52,563 nt of DNA from the IMG/VR virus record IMGVR_UViG_2802428818_000001, positions 1 to 52,563 of that record; one strand, written 5' to 3'. This document shows, one piece after another, positions 71 through 50,804 of the stretch. Both the position numbers and the translations under genes were made by a program. The notes beneath the pieces are model-generated. The model searched no databases, had not been told where the DNA came from, and saw only the letters and a list, made by a program, of their open reading frames with translations. Position 1 is the first letter of the stretch. Each line of letters opens with the position of its first letter. The DNA comes from a virus. Its lineage: Duplodnaviria; Heunggongvirae; Uroviricota; Caudoviricetes.

Positions 71-88
71 TCAGTCAATATTGACTGA
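71..88. promoter_or_regulatory. 18-bp palindrome, copy 1 (extends to a perfect 24-bp palindrome at 68-91)
   Basis: TCAGTCAATATTGACTGA. Confidence 0.85.
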
Positions 89-158
89 TCGCGATGGAGA
101 AAAGAAAAGCGACCCAGGGCCTATTCCGGGTCGCCGGTGTTAAACCAGGTGGGCCTGG

Positions 159-563
159 CTATTCGCTGAATGCCTTGATGACAGCGGCGCGCTGGGCGTC
201 GTTGATCTTCGGATCACGATTATCCGTTGCTTCACGGATGACGCCGAGGATCTCGACTTCGTTCGTGCTGCAAATGAAGTCGAGCATCCGTGCCGACTCC
301 TTGTCATCCGACATGAACTGCTCGAGGGCGAGCCGGAAGAGGAAGAGAGGGTCGACGTCGATCGCGCGGGCAAGCTGGGCCACGCGGTCAAGTGGCAGCT
401 TGGCATCGCCCTTCTTGATCATCGTGACCATGTTCGATTGTGTCCAGCCGGCTGCTTGCGCAATCTCGCGGTGGGACTTGTTGACCTTCTGGTCAATATG
501 CTTATCCAGAAAACGCGCGACCTTCGTATTAGCGTAGGGGCGGACATACGTAGTAGTGGACAT
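159..563 (-). CDS. XRE/Cro-C1-type HTH transcriptional regulator (candidate phage repressor)
   Basis: SHREIAQAAGWTQSNMVTMIKKGDAKLPLDRVAQLARAI is a typical XRE HTH signature. Confidence 0.8.
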   Translation of the reverse strand: MSTTTYVRPYANTKVARFLDKHIDQKVNKSHREIAQAAGWTQSNMVTMIKKGDAKLPLDRVAQLARAIDVDPLFLFRLALEQFMSDDKESARMLDFICSTNEVEILGVIREATDNRDPKINDAQRAAVIKAFSE

Positions 564-691
564 TAACTTAAAACCTTTCTTCCTTGACCTCTGTTTTATT
601 TGTCACTAACAGCGTTTTCTTGTTTTCTGCTGTATAGATAGCGAAGCGGTCATGGGATATCACAATTTCTTTTTGGCAAACTTTGCTGTAG

Positions 692-709
692 TAAGTCAAT
701 ACCGATTGA
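692..709. promoter_or_regulatory. 18-bp palindrome, copy 2 (degenerate)
   Basis: TAAGTCAATACCGATTGA, upstream of the XRE regulator. Confidence 0.6.
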
Positions 710-949
710 GCGAAAAATGATTACGAATCCTTCACGTTAGGCATTTTGCCGACTCAACCCAAGGATTCGTAGGGGTTCCAGCGGTTTAAAATATCCGAAA
801 CGCAACCAAATTTTAGCTCACGTAAAAGTGGCATAATGTATTTTATGGAACTTAAGCGGGTGGTTTGAGTAAGTATTAACCACAAGGGTTGCCAAATCAG
901 CAGAATCGGTGTCACTTGTTGCGAGCAATGTGCAAGGAGATTCGCGTTA

Positions 950-1144
950 ATGTCTTCGGCTCAAAGAATGGCTGAGCACCGTGAGCGTCGCAAGCGGGAG
1001 GGAATGTCTATGGCTACCATCTGGCTTACCAAAGAGGATACCGAGAAGCTGGGCAGGTTCATGGCCGAACGGAAGATTGAATCCAAGCAGGAAGCCATAC
1101 AGGCTGCATTGCGCACGACATTTGAAAAAGAAACGGCAAACTGA
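950..1144 (+). CDS. Small ribbon-helix-helix (CopG/antitoxin-like) DNA-binding protein
   Basis: AAGGAG SD; basic N-helix followed by ATIWLTKEDTEKL..F..ERKIESKQEAIQAAL (beta-helix-helix pattern). Confidence 0.6.
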   Translation: MSSAQRMAEHRERRKREGMSMATIWLTKEDTEKLGRFMAERKIESKQEAIQAALRTTFEKETAN

Positions 1145-1148
1145 AACG

Positions 1149-1310: not shown

Positions 1311-1345
1311 AACGGAGAAGATTTGCCTCATTTTGAGGACTCTAC

Positions 1346-5976: not shown

Positions 5977-5994
5977 TAAGTAAATATTGACTTA
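5977..5994. promoter_or_regulatory. 18-bp palindrome, copy 3
   Basis: TAAGTAAATATTGACTTA. Confidence 0.85.
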
Positions 5995-5998: not shown

Positions 5999-7150
5999 TC
6001 AAGATCCCTGTGAAGACTTTTTCGCCTGCTCGACCTTCCATTTGGCTTCGTCAGCGGCGAACGGATTGCGCAGGCGCCACCTCACATCGAGGGCCGGCGT
6101 CCACAGGGCGGCTGAATAGTAGGCCTTGCGCACAACCTCGCCGAGGACTTCGTTCGGGTCTTTGCGGAACGGCAGAAGCGCGATGCGCGCCTTCAGGCCG
6201 ATCGATGTGAGGAGCTTGGCTGCGTCGAGCGCTGCGATCAGCGCCTTCGTCTCACCGTCCCACATGATCGTCACCGTCTTCACCCCTCCCCTCTTCAGTT
6301 GAAGGAAGCGGCCGAGCTGGTCGTCGCCGGTCGCCGAGCCGTAGGACAGATGCTTGCCGAAGGAGCCGACGGCGACGATCCGGCGCAGATCGACCTCTTC
6401 GTCGAAGGCGATCTTGATCGCTGCAACGTCGAAGAAGCCTTCACCCATCACCACTTCGTCGGTGAGCTGGACATTTTGTCCGTTGAGCAGGAACTTGCCG
6501 GTGCCTGGGAGGCCCTTCGGAAAGAGATATTTGCGCTCGACATACTGGGCAGCCTCGCCAACTGTCAGGTCACGCCCTTGGAAGGTTTTCAGTGTGCCAT
6601 CAAGGTCATAGACGGGAATGATAACCCGATTTGAGAACCACTGTTGTTGCGGCGCGCCCTGATCATCGAAGCACGGCCAGAAGCCATACTGGCAATATCT
6701 GAGGCCGAAATATTTGGCATACTCGCCGGTGATGCCGCGGTTCTCGAGATAGACCAGGTTCTCCCCGTCGGCCGTCGGCAGCTCGTCGGAGTAAGGCAGC
6801 TTCACCTCGCCATGATCGACAGCGACGGTCGTCATGCGCTTCGGGCGCCAGCCCTGCTCACGCATGATCTCCTTGCACTTCTCGATAGTCTCGCGCCAGT
6901 TGTCGTAGCCGAAGTGCAGCTTGACGAACTTCGCCTTGTTGAAGGTCTGGTTGCAGACGAAGCAGTTACCCTGCCCCGTATCGGCGTTCAGATAAACGCG
7001 TGATCGGCCGTCGCCGCAGTCCGGGCAATATTTGGCGTTGATCTGCATGCCGGAAGAGCCGCGGCCCATCTTGTAGGGCAGGCTCTCCTGGTCGAAGAGA
7101 AACTCGAGGTCGAGGTTCTCGGTGATCTCCTGGAAGATATTGTCGCTCAC
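5999..7150 (-). CDS. DNA primase (Zn-finger + Toprim)
   Basis: CPDC...CFVC zinc finger, YLENRGI, RVIIPV, EGFFDV, WDGE Toprim motifs. Confidence 0.88.
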   Translation of the reverse strand: MSDNIFQEITENLDLEFLFDQESLPYKMGRGSSGMQINAKYCPDCGDGRSRVYLNADTGQGNCFVCNQTFNKAKFVKLHFGYDNWRETIEKCKEIMREQGWRPKRMTTVAVDHGEVKLPYSDELPTADGENLVYLENRGITGEYAKYFGLRYCQYGFWPCFDDQGAPQQQWFSNRVIIPVYDLDGTLKTFQGRDLTVGEAAQYVERKYLFPKGLPGTGKFLLNGQNVQLTDEVVMGEGFFDVAAIKIAFDEEVDLRRIVAVGSFGKHLSYGSATGDDQLGRFLQLKRGGVKTVTIMWDGETKALIAALDAAKLLTSIGLKARIALLPFRKDPNEVLGEVVRKAYYSAALWTPALDVRWRLRNPFAADEAKWKVEQAKKSSQGS

Positions 7151-8514
7151 ACGCGCCCCATGACCTTTGTGAGGAACTTGAGCTTCTCGCGGTCCTGTCG
7201 GATGAGAAGCGAGAAATTGTCCTCGGTGTTACGGGATGCGACCCAGGTCAGACGGGCCTCGCCAGACTTCTTCTCGGCCTCGGTCGCGTTGATGGCGATC
7301 ACCACGTCGGCGGTTCGGATCTTGTTGAAGTCCTCGGCGACGTCGGTCATCTTGGCCGTGTGAGCAGCCGCACCGGAACGGTTCGTCTGCGTTGCTGTCA
7401 GCAGCGCCAGATCTTCTTCATAGGCGATCGCGCGCAGGTCGACGTAGATGGCGCGCAGATTGTCGATCATGTTGTCGCTGCGATAGTTCGCAGCCATGAT
7501 GTCAGCGTAGTCCACGGTCAGCAGGTCGAGGATGATACCTTCGGAGCGCCAGCGCTCGAGGATGCGCTTGATGTGATCGGGCTTGAGGGTGCCGGACGCA
7601 TAGTCATTGATGATCAGCGTGCCGGCCTTGGCTTCAGCGGCCTGGATCTTGCGCATGACGGTCTGCGGGTCGTCCTTGAGGAGCCGCATCGCGGTGTCGG
7701 AGACGTTCGCGTCGAGACGGTCGGCGATGATCGACCTGGACACTTCAAGCGAAAGATACGCGGTGTGATAGCCGAGCAGCGCTGCGTTCTTGGTGAACTC
7801 GCCAAGTGAGAGGGACTTGCCGGCCTTCGCCGCACCCATCATCAGCGACATTTCGCGACGGCCCCAGCCGTTGTGGTAGAGGTAGCTGTCAATCTCGCTG
7901 TAGCCCGTCGAGATCCCGCGCTTGACGATCTTGCCGGCCTTCCAGTCCTCGCGGATCTGGGTGCGGTTCACGATCTCCTTGAAATAGTGATAGTCGCCCT
8001 CGTCGGTTTGCAGACCGACAGCGAGCGCTGCCTTTTGCAGCTTCTCGATGCCAGCAAAGTCACCCCGCTGAAGCAGCTCGACGCTCTTCAGGATCGCCTG
8101 CTCCATTGCCTGGAACTTTGCAAAGTCGGAGACCTTCTCGGCGACATAGGACGAGTTCGAAAGATCTGTCTTCATGACGTCACGGATCGCGATCTTGATC
8201 TCGGTCAGCGCGTCGTCGCGGATACGCTTCTTGGCCTTCTCGTCCTTGAGGATCTGGGTGAGGATGCGCAGATCCGGCACGGACTTGTGCACCTGCAGGT
8301 GGTTCTTGATCAGGCTGATAAGCTGGCCATGGGCGTCGTTGGCGAAGTAGGCCGGGTCGATCAGATCCTTGGTGCGGTTGGCGAACTGCGTGTCGCGCAT
8401 GAACAGCGCCAAGGTCTTCTTCTGGAAGCCTTCATCGAAGTCCCACTTCGGCGCTTCCTGCTCGGCGATTTCTTCGTCGTGATCTTCTGCGATCGCTGCG
8501 GCTGCCTGAGACAT
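7147..8514 (-). CDS. dnaB: Replicative DnaB-like helicase
   Basis: Walker A GAAKAGKS, LSLEVS, VDYADIM, TATQTNR, ASRN. Confidence 0.88.
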   Translation of the reverse strand: MSQAAAAIAEDHDEEIAEQEAPKWDFDEGFQKKTLALFMRDTQFANRTKDLIDPAYFANDAHGQLISLIKNHLQVHKSVPDLRILTQILKDEKAKKRIRDDALTEIKIAIRDVMKTDLSNSSYVAEKVSDFAKFQAMEQAILKSVELLQRGDFAGIEKLQKAALAVGLQTDEGDYHYFKEIVNRTQIREDWKAGKIVKRGISTGYSEIDSYLYHNGWGRREMSLMMGAAKAGKSLSLGEFTKNAALLGYHTAYLSLEVSRSIIADRLDANVSDTAMRLLKDDPQTVMRKIQAAEAKAGTLIINDYASGTLKPDHIKRILERWRSEGIILDLLTVDYADIMAANYRSDNMIDNLRAIYVDLRAIAYEEDLALLTATQTNRSGAAAHTAKMTDVAEDFNKIRTADVVIAINATEAEKKSGEARLTWVASRNTEDNFSLLIRQDREKLKFLTKVMGRV

Positions 8515-8533: not shown

Positions 8534-8551
8534 TCAATCAATATTTACTGA
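8534..8551. promoter_or_regulatory. 18-bp palindrome, copy 4
   Basis: TCAATCAATATTTACTGA. Confidence 0.85.
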
Positions 8552-8634: not shown

Positions 8635-9378
8635 CTATTGGATATAGCGATGGACGCGTTCGACCAGATCTGGATCAAAGCGGCTCTCGACCTTGGCGAG
8701 CGGCAGCCGGTTCTGATTGATGAACTGGGCGAGCACATACCAAGGATTTCCCCTGAGTGCTGCCTGCTTGAACAGCCATTCGTGATAGTCGTCCTGATGG
8801 GCGATGCCATCGTAGTTCTCGATCATGTAAGCGGGATCGTCCGACAGATAGAGGCGAGCCGCCTGCATTTCTTCCCACTTGGCGACGGTCTTCTCGACGT
8901 CTTCCTGCTTGTAGAGGTGCTGTGACTGCGGCAGGTGGTTCTGACCCCAGAAGCGCAGACGCAAGCCCATCACGGTGTGGATGTAGTCCTTGTAGGGCAT
9001 GCCGATCGCATCAGCCACCTGACGGCCGCGCCACATGCCGGAGAACTGCATCATGTGCTTTTCGCTAAGCTGGGCGAGACCCTTGAAGATCTCCTCGATC
9101 GACGGCACCTTGATGAACTTCGAGGCAGTCTTCGAGAACTCCACCGCGAAGTAGTCGCGATAGACCTCCCCAAAGGCCTCGATGTAATGACGGGTCGCCT
9201 GAAGCGGCGTCATCATGCGGTAGTCGAACCACTTGGAGCGAAAAAGCTCCGGGTCGATCGCCAGGAGCCTTTTGTCTATAAAGCGGAACGCGACCAGATC
9301 GTCTTCAATCGGGTCTGGTCGCGGCATGTCGTCAATTGCGGGCAGCACTTGCATCCAAAAATCTCTCGAGTCCTTCAC
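8635..9378 (-). CDS. Conserved phage hypothetical protein (replication-associated?)
   Basis: 247 aa with phage-like codon usage; directly upstream of dnaB; start uncertain (47-bp overlap with phoH). Confidence 0.7.
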   Translation of the reverse strand: MKDSRDFWMQVLPAIDDMPRPDPIEDDLVAFRFIDKRLLAIDPELFRSKWFDYRMMTPLQATRHYIEAFGEVYRDYFAVEFSKTASKFIKVPSIEEIFKGLAQLSEKHMMQFSGMWRGRQVADAIGMPYKDYIHTVMGLRLRFWGQNHLPQSQHLYKQEDVEKTVAKWEEMQAARLYLSDDPAYMIENYDGIAHQDDYHEWLFKQAALRGNPWYVLAQFINQNRLPLAKVESRFDPDLVERVHRYIQ

Positions 9379-10189
9379 GAGCTTCGTCGTCGTTGCTCAC
9401 TGAATAGCTCGAAATCTCTTGGTCTTCGTAGAGTTCGACAATTTTTTGAATAAGACCGTGCCGAACGATGTCTTCACGGCCGAACTCCACCACCGAAACT
9501 TCAGGCAACCGACGCAGAAGATGGATCGCTCTCGGCATGCCGGACTTGATGCCTTGGTCGATCTGCTTCAGGTCGCCATTGATGATGAACTTGGCGCCCT
9601 CGCCGATGCGCGTCAGCGCCATCTTGAACTCGGTATCGGTCGCGTTCTGCATTTCATCAAAGATCACCCAGGCGCGCTTCAGCGTGCGGCCGCGCATGAA
9701 GGCCAGCGGCACCGGAACGATGATTTCAGCCTCGATCAGATATTCATAGTTGGCCTGGCCGAATGCGTCGTGAAAAGCCTCCTCGAGCGGCGTCAGGTAG
9801 GGACCGAATTTCTCGTCCAGGTCGCCGGGCAGGAAGCCGAAGGAGCGCTCAACTTCGACGTTCGGGCGGGTGACATAAATCTTGTCGATCAGGCCTGCCT
9901 TATAGGCCTCGGCAGCCCGCTGGACGGCGAACCAGGTCTTGCCCGTGCCGGCCGGGCCAGTGCCAAAGATGATGTCGGACGACTTGATTGCGGCGTCATA
10001 GCGCTTCTGGCCGGCATTGAGCGCCTTCACTGGACCTTCGTGCTTCTCGGTGCGCGAGGGCTTGCGGCGATTGGTTTCATGTTCCTTCACGGCAGCAAGC
10101 AAATTGTCGTGCTTCGTGGGCTTCACAGAGGCGCCGCGGCGCTCCTGTCTTTGAGAGGACTTGGAGAAGCGGCGGGCCTGCTGGGACAT
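9332..10189 (-). CDS. phoH: PhoH-family ATPase
   Basis: GPAGTGKT, GFLPGDL, AFMRGRTL, DEMQN, LTRIGEG..IINGDLKQID, DIVRHGLI. Start at 10189 with GGAG SD. Confidence 0.93.
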   Translation of the reverse strand: MSQQARRFSKSSQRQERRGASVKPTKHDNLLAAVKEHETNRRKPSRTEKHEGPVKALNAGQKRYDAAIKSSDIIFGTGPAGTGKTWFAVQRAAEAYKAGLIDKIYVTRPNVEVERSFGFLPGDLDEKFGPYLTPLEEAFHDAFGQANYEYLIEAEIIVPVPLAFMRGRTLKRAWVIFDEMQNATDTEFKMALTRIGEGAKFIINGDLKQIDQGIKSGMPRAIHLLRRLPEVSVVEFGREDIVRHGLIQKIVELYEDQEISSYSVSNDDEAREGLERFLDASAARN

Positions 10190-10239: not shown

Positions 10240-10257
10240 TAAGTAAATATTGATTTA
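10240..10257. promoter_or_regulatory. 18-bp palindrome, copy 5
   Basis: TAAGTAAATATTGATTTA. Confidence 0.85.
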
Positions 10258-13329: not shown

Positions 13330-13677
13330 CTAGATCCTCGTAACCGGCCGGCGCACAGGCACCACGAGCAGAATGCCGAGGTGCTGCTTCAGACCACCGT
13401 CGGTGCGCACGATATCGATATGAGCCTCGCGATCGGGCCAGTCTGCGGTGATCGAGCCAGGAATCTTGAGATTGAGGATCTTGTCCGACACACGGCCGAT
13501 ATTGCCGTTCGCGGTCGTAAGCGTCGTCAGCACCTCTTCGGAATTGCGATCGCGCCGGACCTGCGAGACGAAGGTCGCAGTCGAAGGGAATGTCAGGCCC
13601 GATTTCTCGAAGCTGATCTGGATGGACCAGTCATAGCCCGCGGTAATGATCTGACCCTTAACCTTCTGAAGCATCAC
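13330..13677 (-). CDS. Tail fibre/baseplate attachment protein (BppU N-terminal-like)
   Basis: ITAGYDW.IQISF...FVSQVRR...LTTLTT.NG.I...L.L.IP...T..W...A..DI pattern; directly before the fibre gene. Confidence 0.6.
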   Translation of the reverse strand: MMLQKVKGQIITAGYDWSIQISFEKSGLTFPSTATFVSQVRRDRNSEEVLTTLTTANGNIGRVSDKILNLKIPGSITADWPDREAHIDIVRTDGGLKQHLGILLVVPVRRPVTRI

Positions 13678-13720: not shown

Positions 13721-13738
13721 TAAATCAATATTGATTGA
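13721..13738. promoter_or_regulatory. 18-bp palindrome, copy 6
   Basis: TAAATCAATATTGATTGA. Confidence 0.85.
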
Positions 13739-16878: not shown

Positions 16879-17101
16879 CTTCGAACTCCTTCTGGGCACG
16901 CATGCGGAAATAAAAGGCAGCCGCGGAGGTCAGTCCGGAAAGGGCGGCGAATGTGCCGGTCGGGATGCCGTAAGGGGCTCCGTAGATCGCGAAGTAGACC
17001 TCAAGACCCGACAGCACGACGGCGCCTGCGATCCACTTCATCGAGTTGGCTTTGAAGAGAATCTTCTTCCAGTCGGGACGGAGCTTGAGGAAATCGCGCA
17101 T
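16868..17101 (-). CDS. Holin/pinholin candidate
   Basis: 77 aa, two TM-like segments, charged C-terminus, directly upstream of the endolysin. Confidence 0.65.
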   Translation of the reverse strand: MRDFLKLRPDWKKILFKANSMKWIAGAVVLSGLEVYFAIYGAPYGIPTGTFAALSGLTSAAAFYFRMRAQKEFEDAH

Positions 17102-17502
17102 TAGCGGCGAACCTCGATGGTCTGAGCACCAGGGCGAACCGGACCCATTTCGAAGTAGTATTCAGCCTTCTTCGTCGGGCTGTTCTCGATGACAGTCGTC
17201 AGGCGCACGACAGCTTCCTTGAGCTTCTGCGTTTCCTGGGTCTGTTCCTTGAGAGCTTCGGTGTTGCGATCGCGGTCCTGGTCGGTGCGATCGAGGCGAA
17301 TATCCTGCTCCTGGTCCTTGACGGCCTGCACCTTGCCGGCCTCGGAGATCGACTGAACGAGCTCGCGGACGATTGGTGCGTTCTCAGCGCGGCCGGACAG
17401 GAGCCAGTTGTAGATACCGAAGGCGGTGCTGCAAACGGCGATGCAGCCGGTTACAAGCGCGAGCGTCTCCTTATTGATCGAAATGGAGGGCATCGAGGCC
17501 AT
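17101..17502 (-). CDS. Single-TM membrane protein of lysis cassette (holin/antiholin candidate)
   Basis: N-terminal TM plus coiled coil; start/stop overlap with the holin gene. Confidence 0.55.
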   Translation of the reverse strand: MASMPSISINKETLALVTGCIAVCSTAFGIYNWLLSGRAENAPIVRELVQSISEAGKVQAVKDQEQDIRLDRTDQDRDRNTEALKEQTQETQKLKEAVVRLTTVIENSPTKKAEYYFEMGPVRPGAQTIEVRR

Positions 17503-17532: not shown

Positions 17533-17550
17533 TAAATCAATATTTACTTA
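17533..17550. promoter_or_regulatory. 18-bp palindrome, copy 7
   Basis: TAAATCAATATTTACTTA. Confidence 0.85.
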
Positions 17551-19652: not shown

Positions 19653-19670
19653 TAAGTCAATATTGACTTA
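19653..19670. promoter_or_regulatory. 18-bp palindrome, copy 8
   Basis: TAAGTCAATATTGACTTA (perfect). Confidence 0.85.
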
Positions 19671-26421: not shown

Positions 26422-26439
26422 TAAATCAATATTGACTTA
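26422..26439. promoter_or_regulatory. 18-bp palindrome, copy 9
   Basis: TAAATCAATATTGACTTA. Confidence 0.85.
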
Positions 26440-31587: not shown

Positions 31588-31605
31588 TAAATCAATGTTG
31601 ATTTA
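31588..31605. promoter_or_regulatory. 18-bp palindrome, copy 10
   Basis: TAAATCAATGTTGATTTA, overlaps the chaperone stop codon. Confidence 0.8.
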
Positions 31606-32337: not shown

Positions 32338-32371
32338 AAAAAGACTTACTGGACGAAAAATCCAGTAAGTC
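32338..32371 (-). terminator. Intrinsic terminator after the major tail gene; stem overlaps an 18-bp palindrome
   Basis: GACTTACTGGA-cgaaaaa-TCCAGTAAGTC with A5 (U-tract on - strand). Confidence 0.7.
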
Positions 32372-32383
32372 AATTTTGATTTA
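32366..32383. promoter_or_regulatory. 18-bp palindrome, copy 11
   Basis: TAAGTCAATTTTGATTTA. Confidence 0.8.
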
Positions 32384-33239: not shown

Positions 33240-33270
33240 TGTGATTTCTCCTCTACGTGGCCGTCGATAG

Positions 33271-33288
33271 TCAGTCAAAATTGATTGA
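33271..33288. promoter_or_regulatory. 18-bp palindrome, copy 12
   Basis: TCAGTCAAAATTGATTGA. Confidence 0.8.
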
Positions 33289-33293
33289 CTGTT

Positions 33294-33323
33294 ATTCTAC
33301 AGGCAACAAAAGGCCGTAGTCAA
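33294..33323 (-). promoter_or_regulatory. sigma70-like promoter of the major tail gene
   Basis: TTGACT-N18-TAGAAT; -35 lies inside copy 13 and the start region is covered by copy 12. Confidence 0.6.
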
Positions 33324-33337
33324 TCAATAATGATTGA
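33320..33337. promoter_or_regulatory. 18-bp palindrome, copy 13
   Basis: TCAATCAATAATGATTGA. Confidence 0.8.
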
Positions 33338-37130: not shown

Positions 37131-37156
37131 TATCCACCAATCTTGTGTTGATAAGG

Positions 37157-37180
37157 AAAAAGGGCGGGAGAGCCCGCCCT
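37157..37180 (-). terminator. Intrinsic terminator
   Basis: GGGCGGG-agag-CCCGCCC with A5 tract. Confidence 0.8.
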
Positions 37181-37185
37181 TATAG

Positions 37186-37203
37186 TAAGTCAATATTGAT
37201 TGA
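37186..37203. promoter_or_regulatory. 18-bp palindrome, copy 14
   Basis: TAAGTCAATATTGATTGA. Confidence 0.85.
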
Positions 37204-37212
37204 TGATCAACC

Positions 37213-39351: not shown

Positions 39352-39929
39352 TATGCCGCCGTCCTTCCGCTGAGCTGGAAGGAGCCATCAGGGAAGCGTG
39401 CGAGCGAGAGAATCGCCAGGCGCTTTTCGGACTTCATGAAGCCGTCGATCTCCTCGACAGTCACGTCGGTCGCTGCAAGCACGGTGAGCTGATCTTCGCC
39501 ACCCTGCCGCAGCGTGCAATAGAAGTCATCGGGCAGATTGGCCGGAACCGTGATCTGAGCGCCATCTGCAAAGTCAAGCAGGTAGCCGTGATCGTCGGTC
39601 GTCAACGTGTAGCTCACGCCGAGGATCGACTTGAGGTAAAGCGGCTCGGCGTCGAGACGGCGCTGATTAGCCGGAGCCTCGACCGAAGGCGCCTCTCCCT
39701 CCCGAACAGTTGCAAAGTATGCCACCCGGAGGGTCGGGTTTGCGGATTGAGTTTCAGCACCGCCCGCGTTGACGTAGACGGTCTCATAAGCAGCGCCGAT
39801 GACCTCGGCCTGGCGCTGGGTAACGTATTCGGACAGACCATCGACAAAGCTAATCTTGCCGATCTTGCCGGTGAAGTGCTCCATTCCGAGAGCTTTTAGT
39901 CGAACGCGAGCAGTTTGCGCGGTAGCCAT
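39351..39929 (-). CDS. Head decoration / fibre-base candidate
   Basis: N-domain shared with 36132-37130; C-domain SYTLTTDDHG...ITVPANLP..F.C...Q.G..Q.T typical of phage fibre/decoration modules. Confidence 0.65.
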   Translation of the reverse strand: MATAQTARVRLKALGMEHFTGKIGKISFVDGLSEYVTQRQAEVIGAAYETVYVNAGGAETQSANPTLRVAYFATVREGEAPSVEAPANQRRLDAEPLYLKSILGVSYTLTTDDHGYLLDFADGAQITVPANLPDDFYCTLRQGGEDQLTVLAATDVTVEEIDGFMKSEKRLAILSLARFPDGSFQLSGRTAA

Positions 39930-39947
39930 TGCTTATCTCCAAATAGC

Positions 39948-39972
39948 AAAAGGGGCAGGAAAAACCTGCCCC
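39948..39972 (-). terminator. Intrinsic terminator after the major capsid gene
   Basis: GGGGCAGG-aaaaa-CCTGCCCC with A4 tract. Confidence 0.8.
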
Positions 39973-39977
39973 TATTG

Positions 39978-39995
39978 TAAGTCAATATTGATTGA
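39978..39995. promoter_or_regulatory. 18-bp palindrome, copy 15
   Basis: TAAGTCAATATTGATTGA. Confidence 0.85.
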
Positions 39996-40004
39996 CTATC
40001 CAGA

Positions 40005-40907
40005 TTAAATGTTGAGGATGCCCTTGAGGCGAGCAACCGAGTGGGTGGCCTTGAGGGCGGTGCCCGCATACCACTTGACACGGTAGCGGCTGGCGTCCTT
40101 GTTCTGGACCGTGCCGATTTCTTCGAACTGGATACCAGCCGAAGAACCACCGAAGATGCCGTGGAAACCATCAGCTTCGTTCAGACGAAGAGCGTAGATC
40201 GAGCAGGTGGCGTTAGCCGAGCCCTGAACTTCGTCAGCCGTCATGAAGTCGTTGATGATAACCGGAACACCGTCGTAGGCCGGGACCGGCTTGCCGAAGT
40301 TCGGGATCTGGATCATGTCGCCGGTGTTACCACCGAAGGAGCGCATGATTGCGCGGATAGCACGCCAGGTGCCACGGCGCATCATCAGCACGTCGGCGCC
40401 GAGCTTAACGGCATCGAGCAGCTCGTCGAGCATTTCGGCCGAAACAGCAGCACCGTTTGCGCCAGCGACGAGCGTCTGGGCAGCCGGGGTCAGCTTCTTG
40501 ATGCCGTCGAAGGACTTCGCATTAACCGCGCTGTCGCCGTTGACGATCGTGCGCTTGAACTTGCGACCGAGGCCCTTGGCCTTGGCAGCGAGCTGAATGG
40601 CAACCTGCGGGTTGAGGTTCGACTGGACAGCAGCCGTGAACTTGTCGATGTCGACGTCACCAGCAAGCACCTTGAGCTTGGTCGTGACTTCGTCGAACGT
40701 GGCTGCGCCTTCCGGAACGGCCTCGTATGCATCCAGGAACTCACCTTCAGAGAGGGTGCCTTCGCGGACATACGTGAAAGTCTTGTCGTTCACATGCTGG
40801 AACGGCATCAGCGCAAAAAGAGACTCGGTATCGATGATCTCTTCGATCACACCGCGAGCCTTGTCCTCCTGGGACAGCTTAGCGGCTTCATCCATAAGCA
40901 GCGGCAT
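40005..40907 (-). CDS. Major capsid protein (HK97 fold)
   Basis: 300 aa after scaffold gene; LAGDVDIDKF, FDGI.KL, ELLDAV, YDGVPVIINDF, RYRVKWY.G.AL; strong GAGGAG SD. Confidence 0.9.
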   Translation of the reverse strand: MPLLMDEAAKLSQEDKARGVIEEIIDTESLFALMPFQHVNDKTFTYVREGTLSEGEFLDAYEAVPEGAATFDEVTTKLKVLAGDVDIDKFTAAVQSNLNPQVAIQLAAKAKGLGRKFKRTIVNGDSAVNAKSFDGIKKLTPAAQTLVAGANGAAVSAEMLDELLDAVKLGADVLMMRRGTWRAIRAIMRSFGGNTGDMIQIPNFGKPVPAYDGVPVIINDFMTADEVQGSANATCSIYALRLNEADGFHGIFGGSSAGIQFEEIGTVQNKDASRYRVKWYAGTALKATHSVARLKGILNI

Positions 40908-40940
40908 TGTATTTTCTCCTCTACGTGGCCGTCAGTTCAG

Positions 40941-40958
40941 TCAGTCAAAATTGATTGA
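40941..40958. promoter_or_regulatory. 18-bp palindrome, copy 16
   Basis: TCAGTCAAAATTGATTGA. Confidence 0.8.
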
Positions 40959-40962
40959 CCAT

Positions 40963-40992
40963 AGTCTAACCTGACGGCCACGCATCGAGCAA
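40963..40992 (-). promoter_or_regulatory. sigma70-like promoter of the major capsid gene
   Basis: TTGCTC-N18-TAGACT, flanked by copies 16 and 17. Confidence 0.5.
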
Positions 40993-41002: not shown

Positions 41003-41020
41003 TAAATCAATATTGATTTA
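41003..41020. promoter_or_regulatory. 18-bp palindrome, copy 17
   Basis: TAAATCAATATTGATTTA (perfect). Confidence 0.85.
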
Positions 41021-42095: not shown

Positions 42096-43661
42096 CTACT
42101 TTGCGGCCTGTTTGTTTGGCGAAGTCTTCGTCACCTGACCCTGTCGGGAAGGTTGAGCCGGAGACTTGGTGCCGAACGAGGTTGGGACTGGCAGCAAATC
42201 GATGCCTTCCAGCCACTTGTTGATGTCCTTCTCCATCTTGGCCTTGATGTCGGCCTTCAGACGCGGGAAGAGCTTATTGACGACGACGCGGAGCTGTTCG
42301 CGGCGAACCTCGGCCGGAGCCTGGATCGTTGCGAGCTGCTCGGCGACAGCCAGATCATCCATCAGACGCATGACGTCATAGGTTTCAGGATACTTGACGA
42401 GCTTTTCCTTCGGTTGCTCTTCGCCGGCCCAGAGGCAGACGAGTTCAACCAGCTCGTTTTCGACCTTCTCGCAGGACTGGCCCTTCGAGGTGAGCAGCGA
42501 GTTGACGCGCTCGAAATCGTAGGCCTTGGCGACGCCGGACGAGTTGTCGATACCGACAGCGTTGTCTTCCTTGGTGCGTTCGCCGGCCAGGCCGATCGTG
42601 TGGTAGATCTCGTTGATGATCTTGTTGATCACCGTCAGGATGACGTTTGCCTGCTTCGGATCGGGCGACAGGTATTCGGGCTTGCCGGAGCCGAGACCGG
42701 CGTCGTAGGTGAAGATCCGCTTCGTGCCCATTTCGACCAGCTTGTTGTAGCCGTCGTCACCAGGCATAAGGTTCTGCGCGGGCATCGCGAGCTGCGAGAA
42801 GGTCTGATCCTGGATGATGGCATCGAGGTTCGACAGGTAGTTGGCGACCGCGCGATCGAGATAGGCGATGTCGTCGATCAAGCCCGGCGTGCGATACGGA
42901 TTGTCGGTGATGATGTGATCGAGGAAGACGATCGGCACGCGCTTCAGGCCGTGAACGCCCTGGTCGAGAATGACGATCTTGGTCGCGACCTTCTTGCGGC
43001 CGCGGGTGTCCTTCGACGTCTCTTCCTGCTCTTCGAACAGCGTCCAGTCTTCGCGGGTCCACAGACGAACGCGCGTCGTCACCTCGCCCGTGCCGTGGAT
43101 CGGGTCGGCGTCGTCGCGGAAATACTCGCGCACCTTGACCCAGAGGAGACCACCGTCACCCTCCTCGTCATAGGCATAGTCGAGCAGATCCGTCGCATCG
43201 ACGGGATAGGCGTAGATCTTGCGCTTGGACTGCTTCGCCTCGGCGACCGAAATGGCGCCATCGCGCACATTGGTATCAACGACAAGCGCAACACGGCCCT
43301 TGACCGAGCTCGAGGTGCCGGACGAGCGCATGAGCTGATCGATGCGCATGTTTTGCAGCGTCGAGGACTTCCAGAAATCCTTGACGGTCTGAGACGCATT
43401 GTCGGTATCGCGGGTGATCTGCCCCTTGAAGAGATACTTCGTCACCAGCTCCACGACTTCGCGGGTGTGATTGAAGCGGTAGGCGCGATCGATGCGCGCC
43501 TTGTATTCGTCAGGGCCTTCCTTGTGATACTTGAAGATGTTTTCTTCGAACCAGGTCCGGCCACCCTCATAGGTGCGCTCGAGGAAATGCCAATGCGCGA
43601 TCGACCGGGCATAGTCCGGATGCCTTCGATCGTAAAAACTGCGCAGCAAATCGTTCGTCAT
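42096..43661 (-). CDS. Portal protein (DUF4055-like)
   Basis: 521 aa after terL; YEGG, RAYRFNHTR, IAYLDRA..N..S, SGVAKAYDF. Confidence 0.85.
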   Translation of the reverse strand: MTNDLLRSFYDRRHPDYARSIAHWHFLERTYEGGRTWFEENIFKYHKEGPDEYKARIDRAYRFNHTREVVELVTKYLFKGQITRDTDNASQTVKDFWKSSTLQNMRIDQLMRSSGTSSSVKGRVALVVDTNVRDGAISVAEAKQSKRKIYAYPVDATDLLDYAYDEEGDGGLLWVKVREYFRDDADPIHGTGEVTTRVRLWTREDWTLFEEQEETSKDTRGRKKVATKIVILDQGVHGLKRVPIVFLDHIITDNPYRTPGLIDDIAYLDRAVANYLSNLDAIIQDQTFSQLAMPAQNLMPGDDGYNKLVEMGTKRIFTYDAGLGSGKPEYLSPDPKQANVILTVINKIINEIYHTIGLAGERTKEDNAVGIDNSSGVAKAYDFERVNSLLTSKGQSCEKVENELVELVCLWAGEEQPKEKLVKYPETYDVMRLMDDLAVAEQLATIQAPAEVRREQLRVVVNKLFPRLKADIKAKMEKDINKWLEGIDLLPVPTSFGTKSPAQPSRQGQVTKTSPNKQAAK

Positions 43662-43690: not shown

Positions 43691-43708
43691 TAAATCAATA
43701 TTGATTGA
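43691..43708. promoter_or_regulatory. 18-bp palindrome, copy 18
   Basis: TAAATCAATATTGATTGA. Confidence 0.85.
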
Positions 43709-43717: not shown

Positions 43718-44992
43718 TTACAGCGAGACGCCCAGAATGTTGATCTTGCGGACTGGATATTCGAAATCGGTGAAGTAGCCGAGCGCGTCTGCGGGGTGTT
43801 CGACGCCAGCCTTCTTGTCCACGTCGCGTGTTCCAGCCTTGTAGATCGTCTGCTCCATCGCCTCGATCGTCTTCTGCGCCTTGCGGTCGAAGCGCAGGCG
43901 AATCGTGCCCTCGGCATCCATCAAGAGACGGTTGACCGAGTTGATGCGGTCATCGACGGCCGGGTGCTTGCGCTTGAACTTGATGCGGGTGAAGCCGGCA
44001 TCGCGCAGGATCTCGAGCGAGGACTCGCCGCGGGCATGCGTGCGGTTGTTGCCGGCCGGGTCCGGATAGACGGTGATGTTGTTCATGTGCCGGTGATAGC
44101 GGCGCCCGAGCTCGTCGGCCGTCTCCTGGGTGTTGGAGCCAGGCAGGATCGCTTCGTCGACCACCCAGATCTCGCCGTTCGGCTGGACCTGCATGATGAC
44201 GGACGACATCGGATCAATGTTGAAGTCCTGGCCGACGATGATCGGCAGCTTCGGATTGAACGGATATTCACCGACGTGGATGCGGCGATCGAACGGGTAA
44301 TAGACGCGGCCCGACATCGACTCGAATGATGCCTCGAACTCCTGACGGAAGCTCTTTGGATCCATTTCGCGGCGTGCGGTCTCGATTTCCGAGCGCGGAA
44401 TGAACGGCGACATGATCGTCGGGAACTGCCAGCTCTTCCACGAGTTGACGACGATCTTGCCCTTTTCGTCCTTGTAGGTGTCGCCGCGCTGACCCATGAC
44501 ATACATGTCATAGAGCCAGTTGAAGGCCTTCGGCGTGCCGATGAAGATGACCTGACCACCCGTCGAGGCGAGCGTCGGGCGAAGAACCGTCTTCCAGGTT
44601 TCTTCCTTCATGTCCTGGGCTTCGTCGAGCACCAGGAAGTTGATACCGACACCGCGCAGCGTATCCGGATTATCGGCGCCCTTCAGCTCGATGCGGCTGC
44701 CGTTGACCAGCCGGATGGTCATGCGGGTTTCGTTGATGCCGTTCCAGACGATGAGCGCCTTCGGGATCGACCGCTTGAGATCTTCCCAAAGGATCTGCCG
44801 GGCCATCTGATAGGTCGGCGCCACATACCAGCAGAGCTGGTTCTTGCGCGTCGTGGCAGCCTGGATCAGCGCGATCTTGGAGATCTGCGTCTTGCCCCAG
44901 CGTCGGCCGGCGACGATGACCTTGAAGCGGCGCCGGTCCTTAAGAACAATCTTTTGGCCGCGGTGCGCCTTGAGTTTGAGCGGTGAACTCAC
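43718..44992 (-). CDS. terL: Terminase large subunit
   Basis: AGRRWGKT, ADNPDTLRG, LDEAQ, IGTP, FRQEFEASF, GQDFN, YPDPAG, HPADALGY. Confidence 0.95.
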   Translation of the reverse strand: MSSPLKLKAHRGQKIVLKDRRRFKVIVAGRRWGKTQISKIALIQAATTRKNQLCWYVAPTYQMARQILWEDLKRSIPKALIVWNGINETRMTIRLVNGSRIELKGADNPDTLRGVGINFLVLDEAQDMKEETWKTVLRPTLASTGGQVIFIGTPKAFNWLYDMYVMGQRGDTYKDEKGKIVVNSWKSWQFPTIMSPFIPRSEIETARREMDPKSFRQEFEASFESMSGRVYYPFDRRIHVGEYPFNPKLPIIVGQDFNIDPMSSVIMQVQPNGEIWVVDEAILPGSNTQETADELGRRYHRHMNNITVYPDPAGNNRTHARGESSLEILRDAGFTRIKFKRKHPAVDDRINSVNRLLMDAEGTIRLRFDRKAQKTIEAMEQTIYKAGTRDVDKKAGVEHPADALGYFTDFEYPVRKINILGVSL

Positions 44993-45663
44993 TCCGGGAT
45001 CTCCACGGAGTTGATCTCGGCGAGGATCGCATCCGGATCGTCACCCTCTTCCATCAGGCCGTTCTCACGGTGATGGTTGAGAATGTCGTCGTCGGTCAGA
45101 TCCTCGAAGTGGATCTCCGGCAGGTCGTCTTCGTCGATCAGGTCGTTGGCGCGCAGGATATCGAGGCGCGTGATGGTGTTTTCGACCAGGATCTTCTGGA
45201 AGCGCTGCACGGCCTTGAGGTCGTCGTCGGTCGAGGCAAGCGTGCCGGCCGATGCAGAGCCGGCCGAGACCTTCAGGGCGTCGGCGATGATCTTCTTCGC
45301 CAGCATGTCGGCTTGCTTCAGGGCCTTATAGCCGGAGGTGCGGGTCTCCTCGATCCACTCGGCGCGCTTTTCGTTGTAGCGTTCCGCCTGGGCCGTCTGC
45401 TGAGCAGCGTTTTGCGTCGTCGCTGCCTTGACACCGGCCGATGCAGCGGCGCTCACCTCTGACGCCCGTGAGCCGTATTCGACGCCGTCATCCTTGAACC
45501 TGCGCCACAGCGCTTGCCGGGAGACGTCATACTTCTCGCCGAGCTCCGACAGGCGCATCTTGCCAAGCTCATAGAGCTCCCTCGCCTCGGCGTAATCCGA
45601 GTCAGAGAGTCGCTTGGCGTTGGCAGCATTTTTGCTCGCCGGAGTGGTTGTTTCCTCAGTCAT
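44989..45663 (-). CDS. terS: Terminase small subunit
   Basis: N-terminal HTH (LSELGEKYDVSRQALWRRF); GTGA overlap with terL. Confidence 0.75.
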   Translation of the reverse strand: MTEETTTPASKNAANAKRLSDSDYAEARELYELGKMRLSELGEKYDVSRQALWRRFKDDGVEYGSRASEVSAAASAGVKAATTQNAAQQTAQAERYNEKRAEWIEETRTSGYKALKQADMLAKKIIADALKVSAGSASAGTLASTDDDLKAVQRFQKILVENTITRLDILRANDLIDEDDLPEIHFEDLTDDDILNHHRENGLMEEGDDPDAILAEINSVEIPE

Positions 45664-45675: not shown

Positions 45676-45693
45676 TCAATCAATATTTACTTA
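45676..45693. promoter_or_regulatory. 18-bp palindrome, copy 19
   Basis: TCAATCAATATTTACTTA. Confidence 0.85.
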
Positions 45694-45797: not shown

Positions 45798-46049
45798 TCA
45801 CCGGAACCACTGATACAAAAGCTGGTTAGGCTTGATCAGAACAGACATTCCGGCTCGCTCCTTGGTGATCCACTTTCTTTCCTCGAAGGTCTTGATGATC
45901 TTCCGGAGTGAACCGTAGGCGCAGCCATAGGAAAGACTCTGGTGAATCTCCGTGACCGTCAGAAACCTGCCTTCGTCGGCAGCCTTCAGAATGATCCCGG
46001 CGATCTCGGAGTGCTTCTCCCCTCTTCTCACCCGGCTCAAGGTTTCCAC
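45798..46049 (-). CDS. Small winged-HTH DNA-binding protein (candidate late regulator)
   Basis: LTVTEIHQSL...YGSLRKIIKTFEERKWITKER wHTH pattern. Confidence 0.65.
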   Translation of the reverse strand: METLSRVRRGEKHSEIAGIILKAADEGRFLTVTEIHQSLSYGCAYGSLRKIIKTFEERKWITKERAGMSVLIKPNQLLYQWFR

Positions 46050-48108: not shown

Positions 48109-48752
48109 GCAGCTTCCTTTGTTGTGATGTCGACCTTCTCCTTGAAGCGCTTGTAGATGGCGAGGTTGGGCGCCAGCTCCGTTTCAAGGTCGGTGTGGGT
48201 GGTTGCGACCAGAAGGCTCTTGCCGCGCTCACGAGCGACCTTCTGAACCGAAAATGCGATGGCCTTAGCAGTCGCGCGGTCGAGCACGGCGCCGAACTCG
48301 TCGGCCACCCAGACATCGGCGTCGCTTTCCATGACCTTTGCGAGCTTCAGGCGGTAGCGCTGCCCGTCAGACAGTTCCGATGGCGTGCGAATATAGATCC
48401 AGGCGTCGGAGATTCCGGCGCGGGCCAGCAGGTAGATCGCCTCGTTGAAATCCTTGCCGAGCTGATCGATTACCGGCTCAGCATTGTCGAGGGTGATATC
48501 GTCGAGGTTGGCGACCACCCTCCCCTGCTCGCGCATCTGACGCGTCAGGTCGCGCAAGAGCAGCGACTTGCCCGAGCCCGACTGGCCGTTGATGTAGACC
48601 ACATCGTCGTCGCGGATCTCGAGTTTCAGATCCTTGTAGATTTCGAACCGTTTGTCGGCCAGTCCCAGGCCGAAGGCTTCGGCAACCTCGAGAACGCGAG
48701 GCGTGCGCTCGACCCACGAGTTGAAGCCGCAGTTGATCGTGTATTCGGTCAT
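48105..48752 (-). CDS. Stand-alone ABC-family ATPase
   Basis: Walker A GQSGSGKS, signature LSDGQ, Walker B WVADEF; start MTEY at 48752 by ATGA overlap. Confidence 0.88.
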   Translation of the reverse strand: MTEYTINCGFNSWVERTPRVLEVAEAFGLGLADKRFEIYKDLKLEIRDDDVVYINGQSGSGKSLLLRDLTRQMREQGRVVANLDDITLDNAEPVIDQLGKDFNEAIYLLARAGISDAWIYIRTPSELSDGQRYRLKLAKVMESDADVWVADEFGAVLDRATAKAIAFSVQKVARERGKSLLVATTHTDLETELAPNLAIYKRFKEKVDITTKEAA

Positions 48753-49168
48753 TCGTATTCCCATTCTTCTTCGGGCGGGATGGCTGTTGGATCGAGTCTC
48801 TCGCCACCCAAGAGCAGCGCCGGCGCAGTTGCGGCCGCGCTGTCGGCAAGCTCGAGCTTCAGCGTCTCCATGACGCCGACGAAGGCGTGCAGGTCGTTTG
48901 GCGGGATGACGCGATTGTCGAGGCAGACCTCGGTGAGGAAGATCTTGTGCTTGGTATCGCGGGAGAAGAGCACCAGGCCTTCCAGGTGCCCTTCCCGTGT
49001 CATCTTCAGCAGACCCTCGAGGATCTCGATCATGGCTTCGCGATGCTCCATTACCGCGTCGGCCGCCTGCTTCTTGGCCTTGCGGCTGGCTGCGCGCTTC
49101 TGCTTGCGCTCTTCGGAGCGAGCGAGAGCGAAGGGCTTGCGAGTCTTCAGGTCGATGACCTCGCTCAT
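48749..49168 (-). CDS. Hypothetical protein
   Basis: 139 aa, coupled to both neighbours. Confidence 0.7.
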   Translation of the reverse strand: MSEVIDLKTRKPFALARSEERKQKRAASRKAKKQAADAVMEHREAMIEILEGLLKMTREGHLEGLVLFSRDTKHKIFLTEVCLDNRVIPPNDLHAFVGVMETLKLELADSAAATAPALLLGGERLDPTAIPPEEEWEYE

Positions 49169-49833
49169 GCAGCGACATCCAGCTTGTCGGAAATGAAGGT
49201 GATGAAGGCATCGACACCCTTGAGGCCGGTGTTCTTCTCGATCCTGCCCATCAGCTCGCGGATCGTGCGGCTCTCGGCGATCGTGACGCGCTTGAAGCCC
49301 AGAGCGTCGGCGACCGGGGCTGCGACGTCATCGACTTCCTTGGTCTTTGCGTCGTTTTCGGTCTTCTGCTTCTCGACCGCACCGGAGATATCCTCGACGA
49401 AGACGGTGTCTTCCATTTCCAGGAGATCGGCCGTTGCGAAATTGAGCTCGTGCTCGGAGTAGCCGAGGATGGTGAGGTCGATACCTTCCATGCTTTCGGC
49501 GAGCGCTGCCAGCTCCGACTGCTCGAGCTCGAGGTCGTATTCGGTCGACGCCACGCGGTTGTCAGCCAGGCGCAGCGCATTGGCTTCGTCCTTGGTCAGA
49601 TCTTCGCGGATGATCACCGGCACCTTCTCGAGGCCGATGTTGAGGGCTGCCAGGCGCCGGCCGTGACCGGCGATGATCACCAGATCCTTGTCGACGACGA
49701 TCGGCGAGGTCCAGCCGTATTTGCCGATGAGACTCGACAGCTTTTCGATCTGCTCCTCGGAGTGCTTCTTGGCGTTGTTTTCGTATGGCTTGAGATCGGC
49801 GACCGCGATCAGCGTGACGGGCCTATTCGTCAT
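49165..49833 (-). CDS. ParB/Srx-domain protein
   Basis: LKPYENNAKKH, YGWTSPIVVD, IIAGHGRRLAA, LRLADNR. Confidence 0.88.
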   Translation of the reverse strand: MTNRPVTLIAVADLKPYENNAKKHSEEQIEKLSSLIGKYGWTSPIVVDKDLVIIAGHGRRLAALNIGLEKVPVIIREDLTKDEANALRLADNRVASTEYDLELEQSELAALAESMEGIDLTILGYSEHELNFATADLLEMEDTVFVEDISGAVEKQKTENDAKTKEVDDVAAPVADALGFKRVTIAESRTIRELMGRIEKNTGLKGVDAFITFISDKLDVAA

Positions 49834-50005
49834 CGTATTGCTCCCCAAAGAGTTTCATGAGTTCGTGGTTGGTCTTCTCGCGGATGCGAACCTTCTCTTC
49901 GAAGAACTCGCCGCTGTCGCATTCGCCGCAGATCGGGTTGCGACGGTTTTTCAGGAAGAAGACGCAGGACTTGCAGTCGTCGAATTTCGGCCGGACGAAG
50001 GTCAT
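49823..50005 (-). CDS. Small zinc-finger-like protein
   Basis: CKSC...CGEC; ATGA overlap with the upstream ParB gene. Confidence 0.65.
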   Translation of the reverse strand: MTFVRPKFDDCKSCVFFLKNRRNPICGECDSGEFFEEKVRIREKTNHELMKLFGEQYDDE

Positions 50006-50757
50006 TCGCCTTCTCCGATGAGATCGTCGAGGCCGTCCAGTTCGGAAGCTGCCTCGGCTTCGGCCTTTGCCTGCTTGTTGAGCAGCAGGTGAACCAGGGC
50101 GTCGCCGGCGTTGGTCAGATCATCGGCCGCGGTGAAGCCATTGTCGGTCTTGGTGCGCTCGATGAGACGGGTGAGATCTTCGGCGTCGCGGTTCGAAACC
50201 TTGTAGCGGATGATCGTGTGGGTCTTCGGGGCCTTTGGTTGGACCGGCTCCTCGGACAAATCGTCGTTTTCCGCTTCCTTTTCGAAATTTTCGTCAAGAC
50301 CGAGCGAATCCAGATCTATCTCTGATGTCGTGAAGAGATCAGCGAAGTCGTGCTCGGTGTAAGGAAGGAAATCTTTCAGTTGCTCTGCGTTGCCCATCCC
50401 CTTGATGAGGTCGGCGAAGGCGATCTGATCGTCCATGCCGTAGCGCGAGTTGTCGGCGATGCCGATTTCCTTGGCCTTCAGATCGTCGATCGGGCCGAGG
50501 TTCATCACGGGGATCTTTTTCAGACCGAGCTTTGCGGCGACTTGCGCGCGATGCTCACCGCCGAGGATTTCGTAGCTTGTCGCCTTATCGCTAAAGGGCG
50601 AAATAGCGATTTCGCGAACGACGGCCGGACGGAAGAAGCCGAGGCGCTTGATGGACTCTTCCAGCTTCGCCTCGTTCTCGGGCGTCACGATGTTGGTGTT
50701 CCAGGGGTTCGGTCTCAGGGTGCTCGGATCGAGCTCCATCATCTTCGGATATGTCAT
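50002..50757 (-). CDS. ParB/Srx-domain protein
   Basis: LRPNPWNTN, LEESIKRLG, YEILGGEHR; start MTYPK at 50757 with AAGG SD. Confidence 0.85.
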   Translation of the reverse strand: MTYPKMMELDPSTLRPNPWNTNIVTPENEAKLEESIKRLGFFRPAVVREIAISPFSDKATSYEILGGEHRAQVAAKLGLKKIPVMNLGPIDDLKAKEIGIADNSRYGMDDQIAFADLIKGMGNAEQLKDFLPYTEHDFADLFTTSEIDLDSLGLDENFEKEAENDDLSEEPVQPKAPKTHTIIRYKVSNRDAEDLTRLIERTKTDNGFTAADDLTNAGDALVHLLLNKQAKAEAEAASELDGLDDLIGEGE

Positions 50758-50786
50758 CGGCACCTTGTTGGAATAGTGGGTGGCAG

Positions 50787-50804
50787 TCAGTAAATATTGA
50801 TTTA
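50787..50804. promoter_or_regulatory. 18-bp palindrome, copy 20
   Basis: TCAGTAAATATTGATTTA, in the divergent ParB/helicase gap. Confidence 0.85.

Follow-up and report, generated by a model that had tools for sequence, protein, structure and literature searches.

The window analyzed here is a 52,563-nt stretch of viral DNA, nucleotides 1 to 52563 of the 116,563-nt virus record IMGVR_UViG_2802428818_000001, and copies of an 18-bp palindrome are dispersed through its intergenic gaps, before and after genes for replication, head, and tail proteins. These palindromes, and the small XRE-family protein encoded at positions 159 to 563 that may read them, are our subject. The record has a 95-nt terminal repeat and is therefore circular. 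Its GC content is ~59%, so the initial annotation, a reading of the letters of the window alone, rightly called the genome GC rich. By our own gene calls the genome has 160 genes, of which 148 lie on the minus strand, and 88.5% of its length is coding sequence.

A search with the capsid protein retrieved 56 relatives. The element is closest to the Rhizobium phages RHph_N1_15 and RHEph10, with ~80% nucleotide identity across the head genes; plasmids of cultured Pararhizobium, Shinella, Rhizobium, Sinorhizobium, and Methylobacterium are also near, and SSU5-type phage-plasmids of enterobacteria, Aeromonas, and Acinetobacter lie further off. The element carries repC and an annotated relative carries parA, which makes it a plasmid-prophage; it is a phage-plasmid of the RHEph10/SSU5 type.

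All 20 coordinates at which the initial annotation had placed the palindrome do hold a copy of it. The degenerate pattern T(A/C)A(G/A)T(C/A)AATATT(G/T)A(C/T)T(T/G)A has 14 exact matches in the window, against 0.00 expected from 100 shuffles, and the six remaining sites (692, 31588, 32366, 33271, 33320, and 40941) deviate from it by one or two bases, all of them in the central AATATT. When the sites themselves are turned into a position weight matrix, these six off-pattern sites score 25 to 36 bits, and a scan of the whole genome with that matrix finds ~44 distinct sites in 116.5 kb. Despite the high coding density, 41 of the 44 are intergenic (binomial P = 3e-35). Within the window this holds for every site by our own gene calls, as had been claimed, with the qualification that gene 31603-31923 takes its stop codon from the first TAA of site 31588 (31603-31605). 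The further statement that most intergenic gaps contain a site stands for the window, where 17 of the 25 gaps of at least 18 nt hold one; across the genome 35 of 74 do, and one site-free zone (57.7-71.2 kb) spans 13 kb and 27 small genes. Two good sites fall within coding sequence beyond the window, at genome positions 84317 and 103759, which are 48 and 85 nt before the next gene start; both are kept in a Pararhizobium plasmid and are therefore probably internal promoter/operator sites. The intergenic enrichment that the annotation had proposed as a check is plain. Across the phage genome the degenerate 18-mer has 21 matches, against none in 80 other Hyphomicrobiales genomes of 1.4 to 8 Mb each. 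A search of genome contigs for TNANTCAATATTGANTNA gave only single, scattered matches among the matches listed. The sites and the features that bear on them are collected in Table 1.

Table 1. Palindromic sites, listed as putative operators, and associated features in the window (positions 1 to 52,563)
Position	Strand	Feature	Context
71..88		Putative operator TCAGTCAATATTGACTGA, perfect palindrome	After XRE terminator; 28 nt upstream of 76-aa gene across the circle junction
100..132	-	Terminator-like hairpin and T-run 3' of XRE gene	Read from sequence
159..563	-	XRE/HTH_3 protein, 134 aa, candidate operator-binding repressor	Recognition helix TQSNMVTMIKKG
692..709		Degenerate site, center ATACCG	XRE/repC divergent region; ~70 nt upstream of likely XRE transcription start
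5977..5994		Putative operator within promoter spacer TTGACG-N18-TACAAC	
8534..8551		Putative operator	Upstream of DnaB-like helicase gene 7147-8514
10240..10257		Putative operator	Upstream of PhoH-like gene 9332-10189
13721..13738		Putative operator	5 nt past upstream stop; 46 nt before start of 13330-13674
17533..17550		Putative operator	Upstream of 17101-17502
19653..19670		Perfect consensus TAAGTCAATATTGACTTA	2 nt past stop of 1556-aa tail protein gene
26422..26439		Putative operator within spacer TTCACA-N17-TACCAT	Upstream of minor tail protein L gene
31588..31605		Putative operator occupying 26-nt gap ahead of tape-measure gene	Best roadblock-type candidate
32366..32383		Putative operator	3' end contributes to intrinsic terminator stem (32371-32343)
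33271..33288		Putative O2 of promoter of Ig-domain protein gene (32406-33239)	Over +1; starts 5 nt past -10 TAGAAT (33299-33294)
33320..33337		Putative O1 of promoter of Ig-domain protein gene	Right half provides -35 TTGACT (33323-33318)
37186..37203		Putative operator in spacer TTGATC-N17-TACTAT	Followed by intrinsic terminator 37181-37160; duplicate of 39978 cassette
39978..39995		Putative operator past capsid gene, spacer TGGATA-N17-TACAAT	Followed by intrinsic terminator 39973-39951
40941..40958		Putative O2 of major capsid promoter	Over predicted +1; starts 4 nt past -10 TAGACT (40968-40963)
40963..40992	-	Core promoter of major capsid gene, TTGCTC-N18-TAGACT	CTTG and TA.A.T positions kept in 16 relatives
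41003..41020		Putative O1 of major capsid promoter	10 nt upstream of -35 TTGCTC (40992-40987)
43691..43708		Putative operator in spacer TTGACG-N17-TACCAT	Upstream of 42096-43661 (portal by homology)
45676..45693		Putative operator	12 nt upstream of 44989-45663 (PHROG 867, DNA-binding domain), a gene adjoining large terminase
50787..50804		Putative operator	Between divergent ParB_N gene (50002-50757, -) and DEAD-box helicase gene (50845-52443, +)

The network is conserved well beyond this genome. Plasmid p5 of Pararhizobium qamdonense carries ~40 sites, and 33 of the 35 orthologous genes that have a site here also have an upstream site there, mostly at equal distance. This conservation, together with the presence of sites ahead of replication, head, and tail genes and of a lysozyme-containing block, bears out the proposal of a genome-wide network. 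Even relatives that share only ~50% capsid identity, and whose GC content ranges from 42 to 68%, have (g/a)TAAGTCA-N4-TGACTTA at homologous gaps. Their central 4 bp are free or fixed by lineage (CCGG, CCAC, GTAC, or GAAC; ATAT here), and a weakly constrained center between conserved outer half-sites is the operator layout of the 434/P22 type.

The symmetry of the site suggests a protein dimer as its reader. The two halves carry equal information in the matrix of ~44 sites, perfect symmetry is confined to 3 of 43 sites, and the arms do not covary in a compensatory way at the position pairs 1/16, 3/14, and 5/12, where Watson-Crick pairs number 23, 15, and 26 and independence predicts 21.7, 21.4, and 28.0. 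Because the half-sites vary independently, and obligate pairing would show compensation whereas a dimer on two degenerate half-sites would show none, we read the palindrome as a protein-dimer site and not as a hairpin, in agreement with the symmetric-dimer reading of the initial annotation. On the pattern of the sequence, it is very probable that these palindromes are bound by a protein.

Where promoter geometry can be read, the palindrome is built into it. In the recurring layout, a -35-like hexamer is followed by 1 to 2 nt and the first 16 nt of the site, which together form a spacer of 17 to 18 nt, and the -10 begins with the final TA of the site. Seven sites of this genome have this layout along the direction of transcription (-10 from motif position 16), compared with one in the opposite direction; the clearest are 43691, 37186, 39978, 26422, and 5977. 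An independent promoter scan of the region from 26 to 46 kb returned five promoter-like matches on the minus strand, four of which overlap a site, and among the relatives both hexamers match at 4 or more of 6 positions in 20 of 205 skeleton matches read forward versus 4 in reverse. A second layout precedes the major capsid gene, where an alignment of 16 relatives gives the order O1 (41020-41003), T-tract, -35, N18, -10, 4 nt, and O2 (40958-40941), with the -35 and -10 conserved and the centers of O1 and O2 spaced 62 bp apart. The Ig-domain protein gene of the tail region (32406-33239) has a cassette paralogous to that of the capsid gene, TTGACT-N18-TAGAAT, in which O1 gives the -35 and O2 lies over +1. 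To judge by their sequence, the capsid and Ig-domain promoters look competent for the host polymerase without other factors. Overlap of the palindrome with a -35, a -10, or a +1 is seen at a subset of sites, among them the seven spacer sites, the sites that overlap four of the five promoter-like matches, and these two promoters. Because sites lie in the spacer, over +1, or over the -35, repression would proceed by promoter occlusion and not mainly by roadblocks, and the argument that a separate promoter barely fits into the short gaps fails, since a promoter and an operator fit together in 29 nt.

Two other ways of finding promoter elements in the motif were tried and rejected. With its own TTGAYT read as a -35, no -10 is conserved at the corresponding distance and the forward and reverse orientations show no clear difference; the central AATATT is ruled out as a general -10 by the GC-rich centers of the relatives.

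Further repeats lie around the same promoters. An 11-bp inverted repeat, GTGGCCGTCAG ... CTGACGGCCAC (40925-40981), brackets the capsid -10 and O2, and in two relatives (L018 and L021) its arms differ in sequence and still pair, a compensatory change. Gene 32406-33239 has a shorter version of this inverted repeat (33257-33317) and a 5' leader almost identical to that of the capsid gene. Between the capsid gene and the gene for a 332-aa protein, a 2.8-kb insertion (window 36132-40010) carries two genes, for proteins of 192 and 712 aa with no PHROG match; it was found in none of the 12 relatives compared, one of which (L012) has a partial homologue of the 192-aa protein there. The insertion is flanked by two near-identical cassettes, each comprising an operator, a -10-like hexamer, and a terminator (39978 and 37186).

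Two other classes of intergenic repeat also came to light. The first, (A/G)TCCCA(T/C)-N9-10-(C/T)GCTA, has ~8 intergenic copies, which often supply the loop and the 3' arm of a GC-rich hairpin. Copies lie at 638-657 and 8613 in the window and at genome positions 86677, 88090, 91610, 99334, and 113711; four abut a palindrome, and one precedes the XRE gene. We rejected this element, in the form TCCCAT-N9-CGCTAT, as a common promoter element of the sites, given only ~8 intergenic copies and four that abut a site; the repeat may be a second promoter or operator class. The second repeat, TCGCTAAATCGC, occurs at 47009 and ~26450 in the window and at 53.8-59.1 kb, 102559, and 106580 in the genome, concentrated around the parA region. 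The heptamer GCTAAAT has 11 intergenic copies and no coding copies.

The XRE protein had been named as the best candidate for reading the palindrome, and its modeled fold, its conservation across the family, and a homologue in the Escherichia coli phage-plasmid Cyrano all point the same way. The HTH_3 (helix-turn-helix) match of the protein, at 17.8 bits, falls under the Pfam cutoff of 23. Its AlphaFold model contains a five-helix N-terminal domain (residues 14-83; predicted local distance difference test [pLDDT] values of 81 to 91) that matches C.BclI, C.AhdI, 434 Cro, and the lambda cI N-terminal domain with target TM-scores of 0.66 to 0.77; as modeled, the fold resembles that of 434 Cro and also that of the controller (C) proteins of restriction-modification systems. 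Homologues are present in eight of the nine complete relatives searched, and its absence from the ninth (G002) carries no information, since the sequence of G002 breaks off immediately next to the CobT-like gene. The recognition helix is near-constant among the homologues, KPN(I/M)LSMIK.G, and so is the half-site.

In Cyrano, the homologue CYRAN_45 is annotated as a "putative repressor," adjoins CobT/CobS-like genes as its counterpart does here, and is expressed in the lysogen 10-fold over the prophage background (PMC9928086, Table 1). Its recognition helix differs (NANNLSL). Cyrano (Escherichia phage, OV696614; L084-L089) has no GTCA-N4-TGAC and gave no matches for AGTCA-N4-TGACT or TAAGTACTTA; it has dispersed palindromes of its own, with eight copies of TAAGTA-N2-TACTTA and 12 of AAACAA-N-TTGTTT, the latter mostly right after a TATAAGA-like -10.

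The XRE gene forms its own transcription unit, because its own terminator follows it and then site 71. Only single sites (71 and 692) flank the gene, and no tripartite operator cluster lies beside it. The initial annotation took the degenerate upstream site as consistent with autoregulation; the distance of site 692 from the likely XRE start (Table 1) puts it in no classical autorepression position.

Directly downstream of the XRE gene and site 71, at genome positions 111754 to 116510 and so beyond the window, there is an operon whose products are a 76-aa protein with GLLLFPFVIQDF at its end, a CobT-like VWA protein, a MoxR/CobS-like ATPase, and the phage sigma factor (Sigma70_r2); DnaE follows. 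The neighborhood of repressor, CobT, and CobS is present in Cyrano as well. We rejected the 76-aa gene as a Cro because its product has no helix-turn-helix signature and looks beta rich.

Our reading, to which we assign a probability of about 0.6, is that the dispersed palindromes are operators of a homodimeric helix-turn-helix repressor, most likely the XRE protein, that silences the lytic units of the plasmid-prophage. Among the parts of this reading, the identity of the reader as the XRE protein stands at somewhat better than even, and a role in lysogenic silencing is probable. Each monomer would read one outer half-site, T(A/C)A(G/A)T(C/A)A, whose center lies 11 bp, about one helical turn, from that of its partner, and the central 4 bp probably go without direct contact. 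At the sites with readable geometry, the operator would be built into a host-type (sigma70) promoter, either filling its 17- to 18-nt spacer and supplying the first TA of the -10 or, in the alternative placement, lying over +1, in which case a second operator coincides with the -35 or immediately precedes it. Because the operator is inside the promoter, a bound dimer would deny RNA polymerase access; in the narrowest gaps it could act as a block to elongation instead. A single regulon would thereby span almost all lytic transcription units, with the XRE protein as the repressor of the plasmid, or lysogenic, state.

Several observations weigh against this reading. Some bear on the promoters. 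Recognizable sigma70 hexamers are missing at about 25 of the 44 sites, most of which belong to the half of the genome given over to replication and nucleotide metabolism, and a Gibbs search found no common promoter motif upstream of the sites (3.8 bits, versus 4.3 in the opposite-orientation control). Eight sites lie only 10 to 12 nt from a start codon, with the ribosome-binding site directly after them, and at that distance they must be transcribed or sit at +1. At these sites, and at 31588 in its 26-nt gap, either control of initiation from within the upstream gene or a block to elongation may apply. Strong intrinsic terminators follow directly after sites 39978, 37186, and 32366, which is odd for a promoter, and downstream of the capsid gene distant relatives keep the same succession of site, -10-like hexamer, and terminator. 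Others bear on the site and its reader. The motif has a mild strand asymmetry (position 5 is A in 14 sites, position 12 is T in 3; P = 0.013), which shows some directional constraint: along the direction of transcription, the downstream half holds TTGA more strictly than its upstream mirror. The joint change of helix and motif in Cyrano is suggestive, and it is one independent change only. The phage sigma factor (111754-112395; Sigma70_r2) roughly equals the XRE protein in breadth of conservation and goes undetected in Cyrano, so presence and absence cannot single out the XRE protein. Finally, the XRE protein lacks an S24 cleavage domain, which would have pointed to a route of induction.

The same operators might be read by another phage protein, such as either of two ParB-domain proteins acting in the manner of KorB, the winged-helix protein at 45798-46031, or a protein that we did not recognize; we consider this rather unlikely. 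In the IncP plasmid RK2, the ParB-family protein KorB reads a dispersed palindrome; this genome encodes a ParB_N protein (50002-50757) with a site in its own promoter region, and the link to the XRE protein consists of conservation and that one change of helix and motif. Yet the ParB_N protein shows only its ParB_N domain in Pfam, with no helix-turn-helix, and the winged-helix match falls under the cutoff, whereas 7-bp outer half-sites one turn apart around a free 4-bp center are typical of XRE dimers of the 434/P22 type. The Cyrano gene that is both annotated as a repressor and expressed in the lysogen is, moreover, the XRE homologue.

It is improbable that the palindrome is instead a positive element, whether the site of a lytic activator or a promoter class of the phage sigma factor, that turns lytic genes on. 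The sigma factor is kept in most motif-bearing relatives and goes undetected in motif-less Cyrano, many sites are without good host-type hexamers, some sites of the relatives adjoin TTGACA with their center near -41.5, the position of a class II activator, and the late promoters of P1 have an inverted repeat near -22. A monomeric sigma factor, however, would leave two equally conserved symmetric half-sites unexplained, and the two elements of a sigma promoter, an asymmetric -35 and -10 about 16 to 17 bp apart, cannot be brought as close as the conserved blocks of this motif, which only 4 bp separate. Coverage of +1 at the capsid and Ig-domain promoters and, at seven sites, the filling of an optimal 17- to 18-nt spacer between decent hexamers are the positions of a repressor and not of an activator.

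We regard it as still less probable that the sites act mainly as stoperator-like roadblocks, one of the two modes that the initial annotation had proposed, where a bound protein stops elongation inside long operons. Their distribution is like that of the L5 stoperators, some gaps are very short (the one at 31588 spans 26 nt and the one at genome position 81915 spans 34 nt), eight sites are close to a start codon, and many have no recognizable promoter. The sites here are symmetric, though, and the L5 stoperators asymmetric and orientation dependent; the sites that can be read are promoter parts, and several units are already split by terminator-like hairpins. What survives of this mode is a possible roadblock at the tightest gaps, such as 31588, which is compatible with promoter occlusion.

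It is highly improbable that the palindrome acts by folding into a hairpin in RNA or DNA, for example as a terminator, processing site, or translational element: a 7- to 8-bp stem can fold and the palindrome is intergenic and adjoins ribosome-binding sites, but its arms do not covary, their pairing is at or under independence and rarely perfect, it has no T-run of its own and GC-rich terminators stand beside it as distinct elements, and in the relatives the "loop" varies freely while the outer bases are fixed.

The principle of one repressor and many dispersed operators, which the preferred reading of a dimeric XRE repressor invokes, is already known from P1, L5, and phiC31. In lifestyle it resembles P1, also a plasmid prophage, in which one repressor, C1, silences scattered operons through many promoter-overlapping operators. 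Dispersed operators over a plasmid prophage are found here too, and the asymmetric 17-bp operator of P1 is not: the P1 operators are asymmetric 17-mers read by C1, a large protein unrelated to XRE, whereas the palindromes here measure 18 bp and have a small XRE protein as their candidate reader. In layout it resembles the P22 c2 and 434 repressor/Cro type (XRE/HTH_3 family), with the same five-helix fold and the same outer half-sites one turn apart around a free central 4 bp; P22 operators are 18 bp long, and the operators of 434 and P22 have conserved outer half-sites and an uncontacted center. The lambdoid operators, in contrast, form two tripartite clusters by the repressor gene, and here ~44 sites are spread over 116 kb, with no tripartite clusters beside a divergent repressor/cro pair. 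L5 (Cluster A) shares with this element dozens of sites for one repressor, gp71, in short intergenic gaps throughout the genome. Its sites are asymmetric 13-mers oriented with transcription, and they block elongation; those described here are symmetric apart from the mild bias at positions 5 and 12, and many are promoter parts. The Streptomyces phage phiC31 likewise has many copies of one inverted repeat at its promoters and one repressor; its sites are confined to the early region and its repressor is unrelated, whereas late structural promoters are included here. By analogy, then, the element would be a further regulon of the P1 C1 kind with a 434/P22-like operator. The literature we searched holds no description of this operator element or of lysis-lysogeny control in SSU5/RHEph10-type phage-plasmids.

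Phage-plasmids of the SSU5/RHEph10 type are widespread and include antibiotic resistance-carrying elements of Klebsiella, E. coli, and Acinetobacter. We raise, as a tentative and rather doubtful extension, that the lineage-specific palindromic center, set within a half-site TAAGTCA that stays fixed across the whole family, could, if it sets affinity by indirect readout, determine immunity specificity between co-resident phage-plasmids, and that the operator-terminator cassette around the inserted genes (39978 and 37186) would then put newly acquired genes under the same repressor. A single conserved operator and a named candidate repressor provide a testable handle on the silence of the plasmid state and on its induction, and the operator itself serves as a sequence signature for mapping the transcription units of this family of phage-plasmids.

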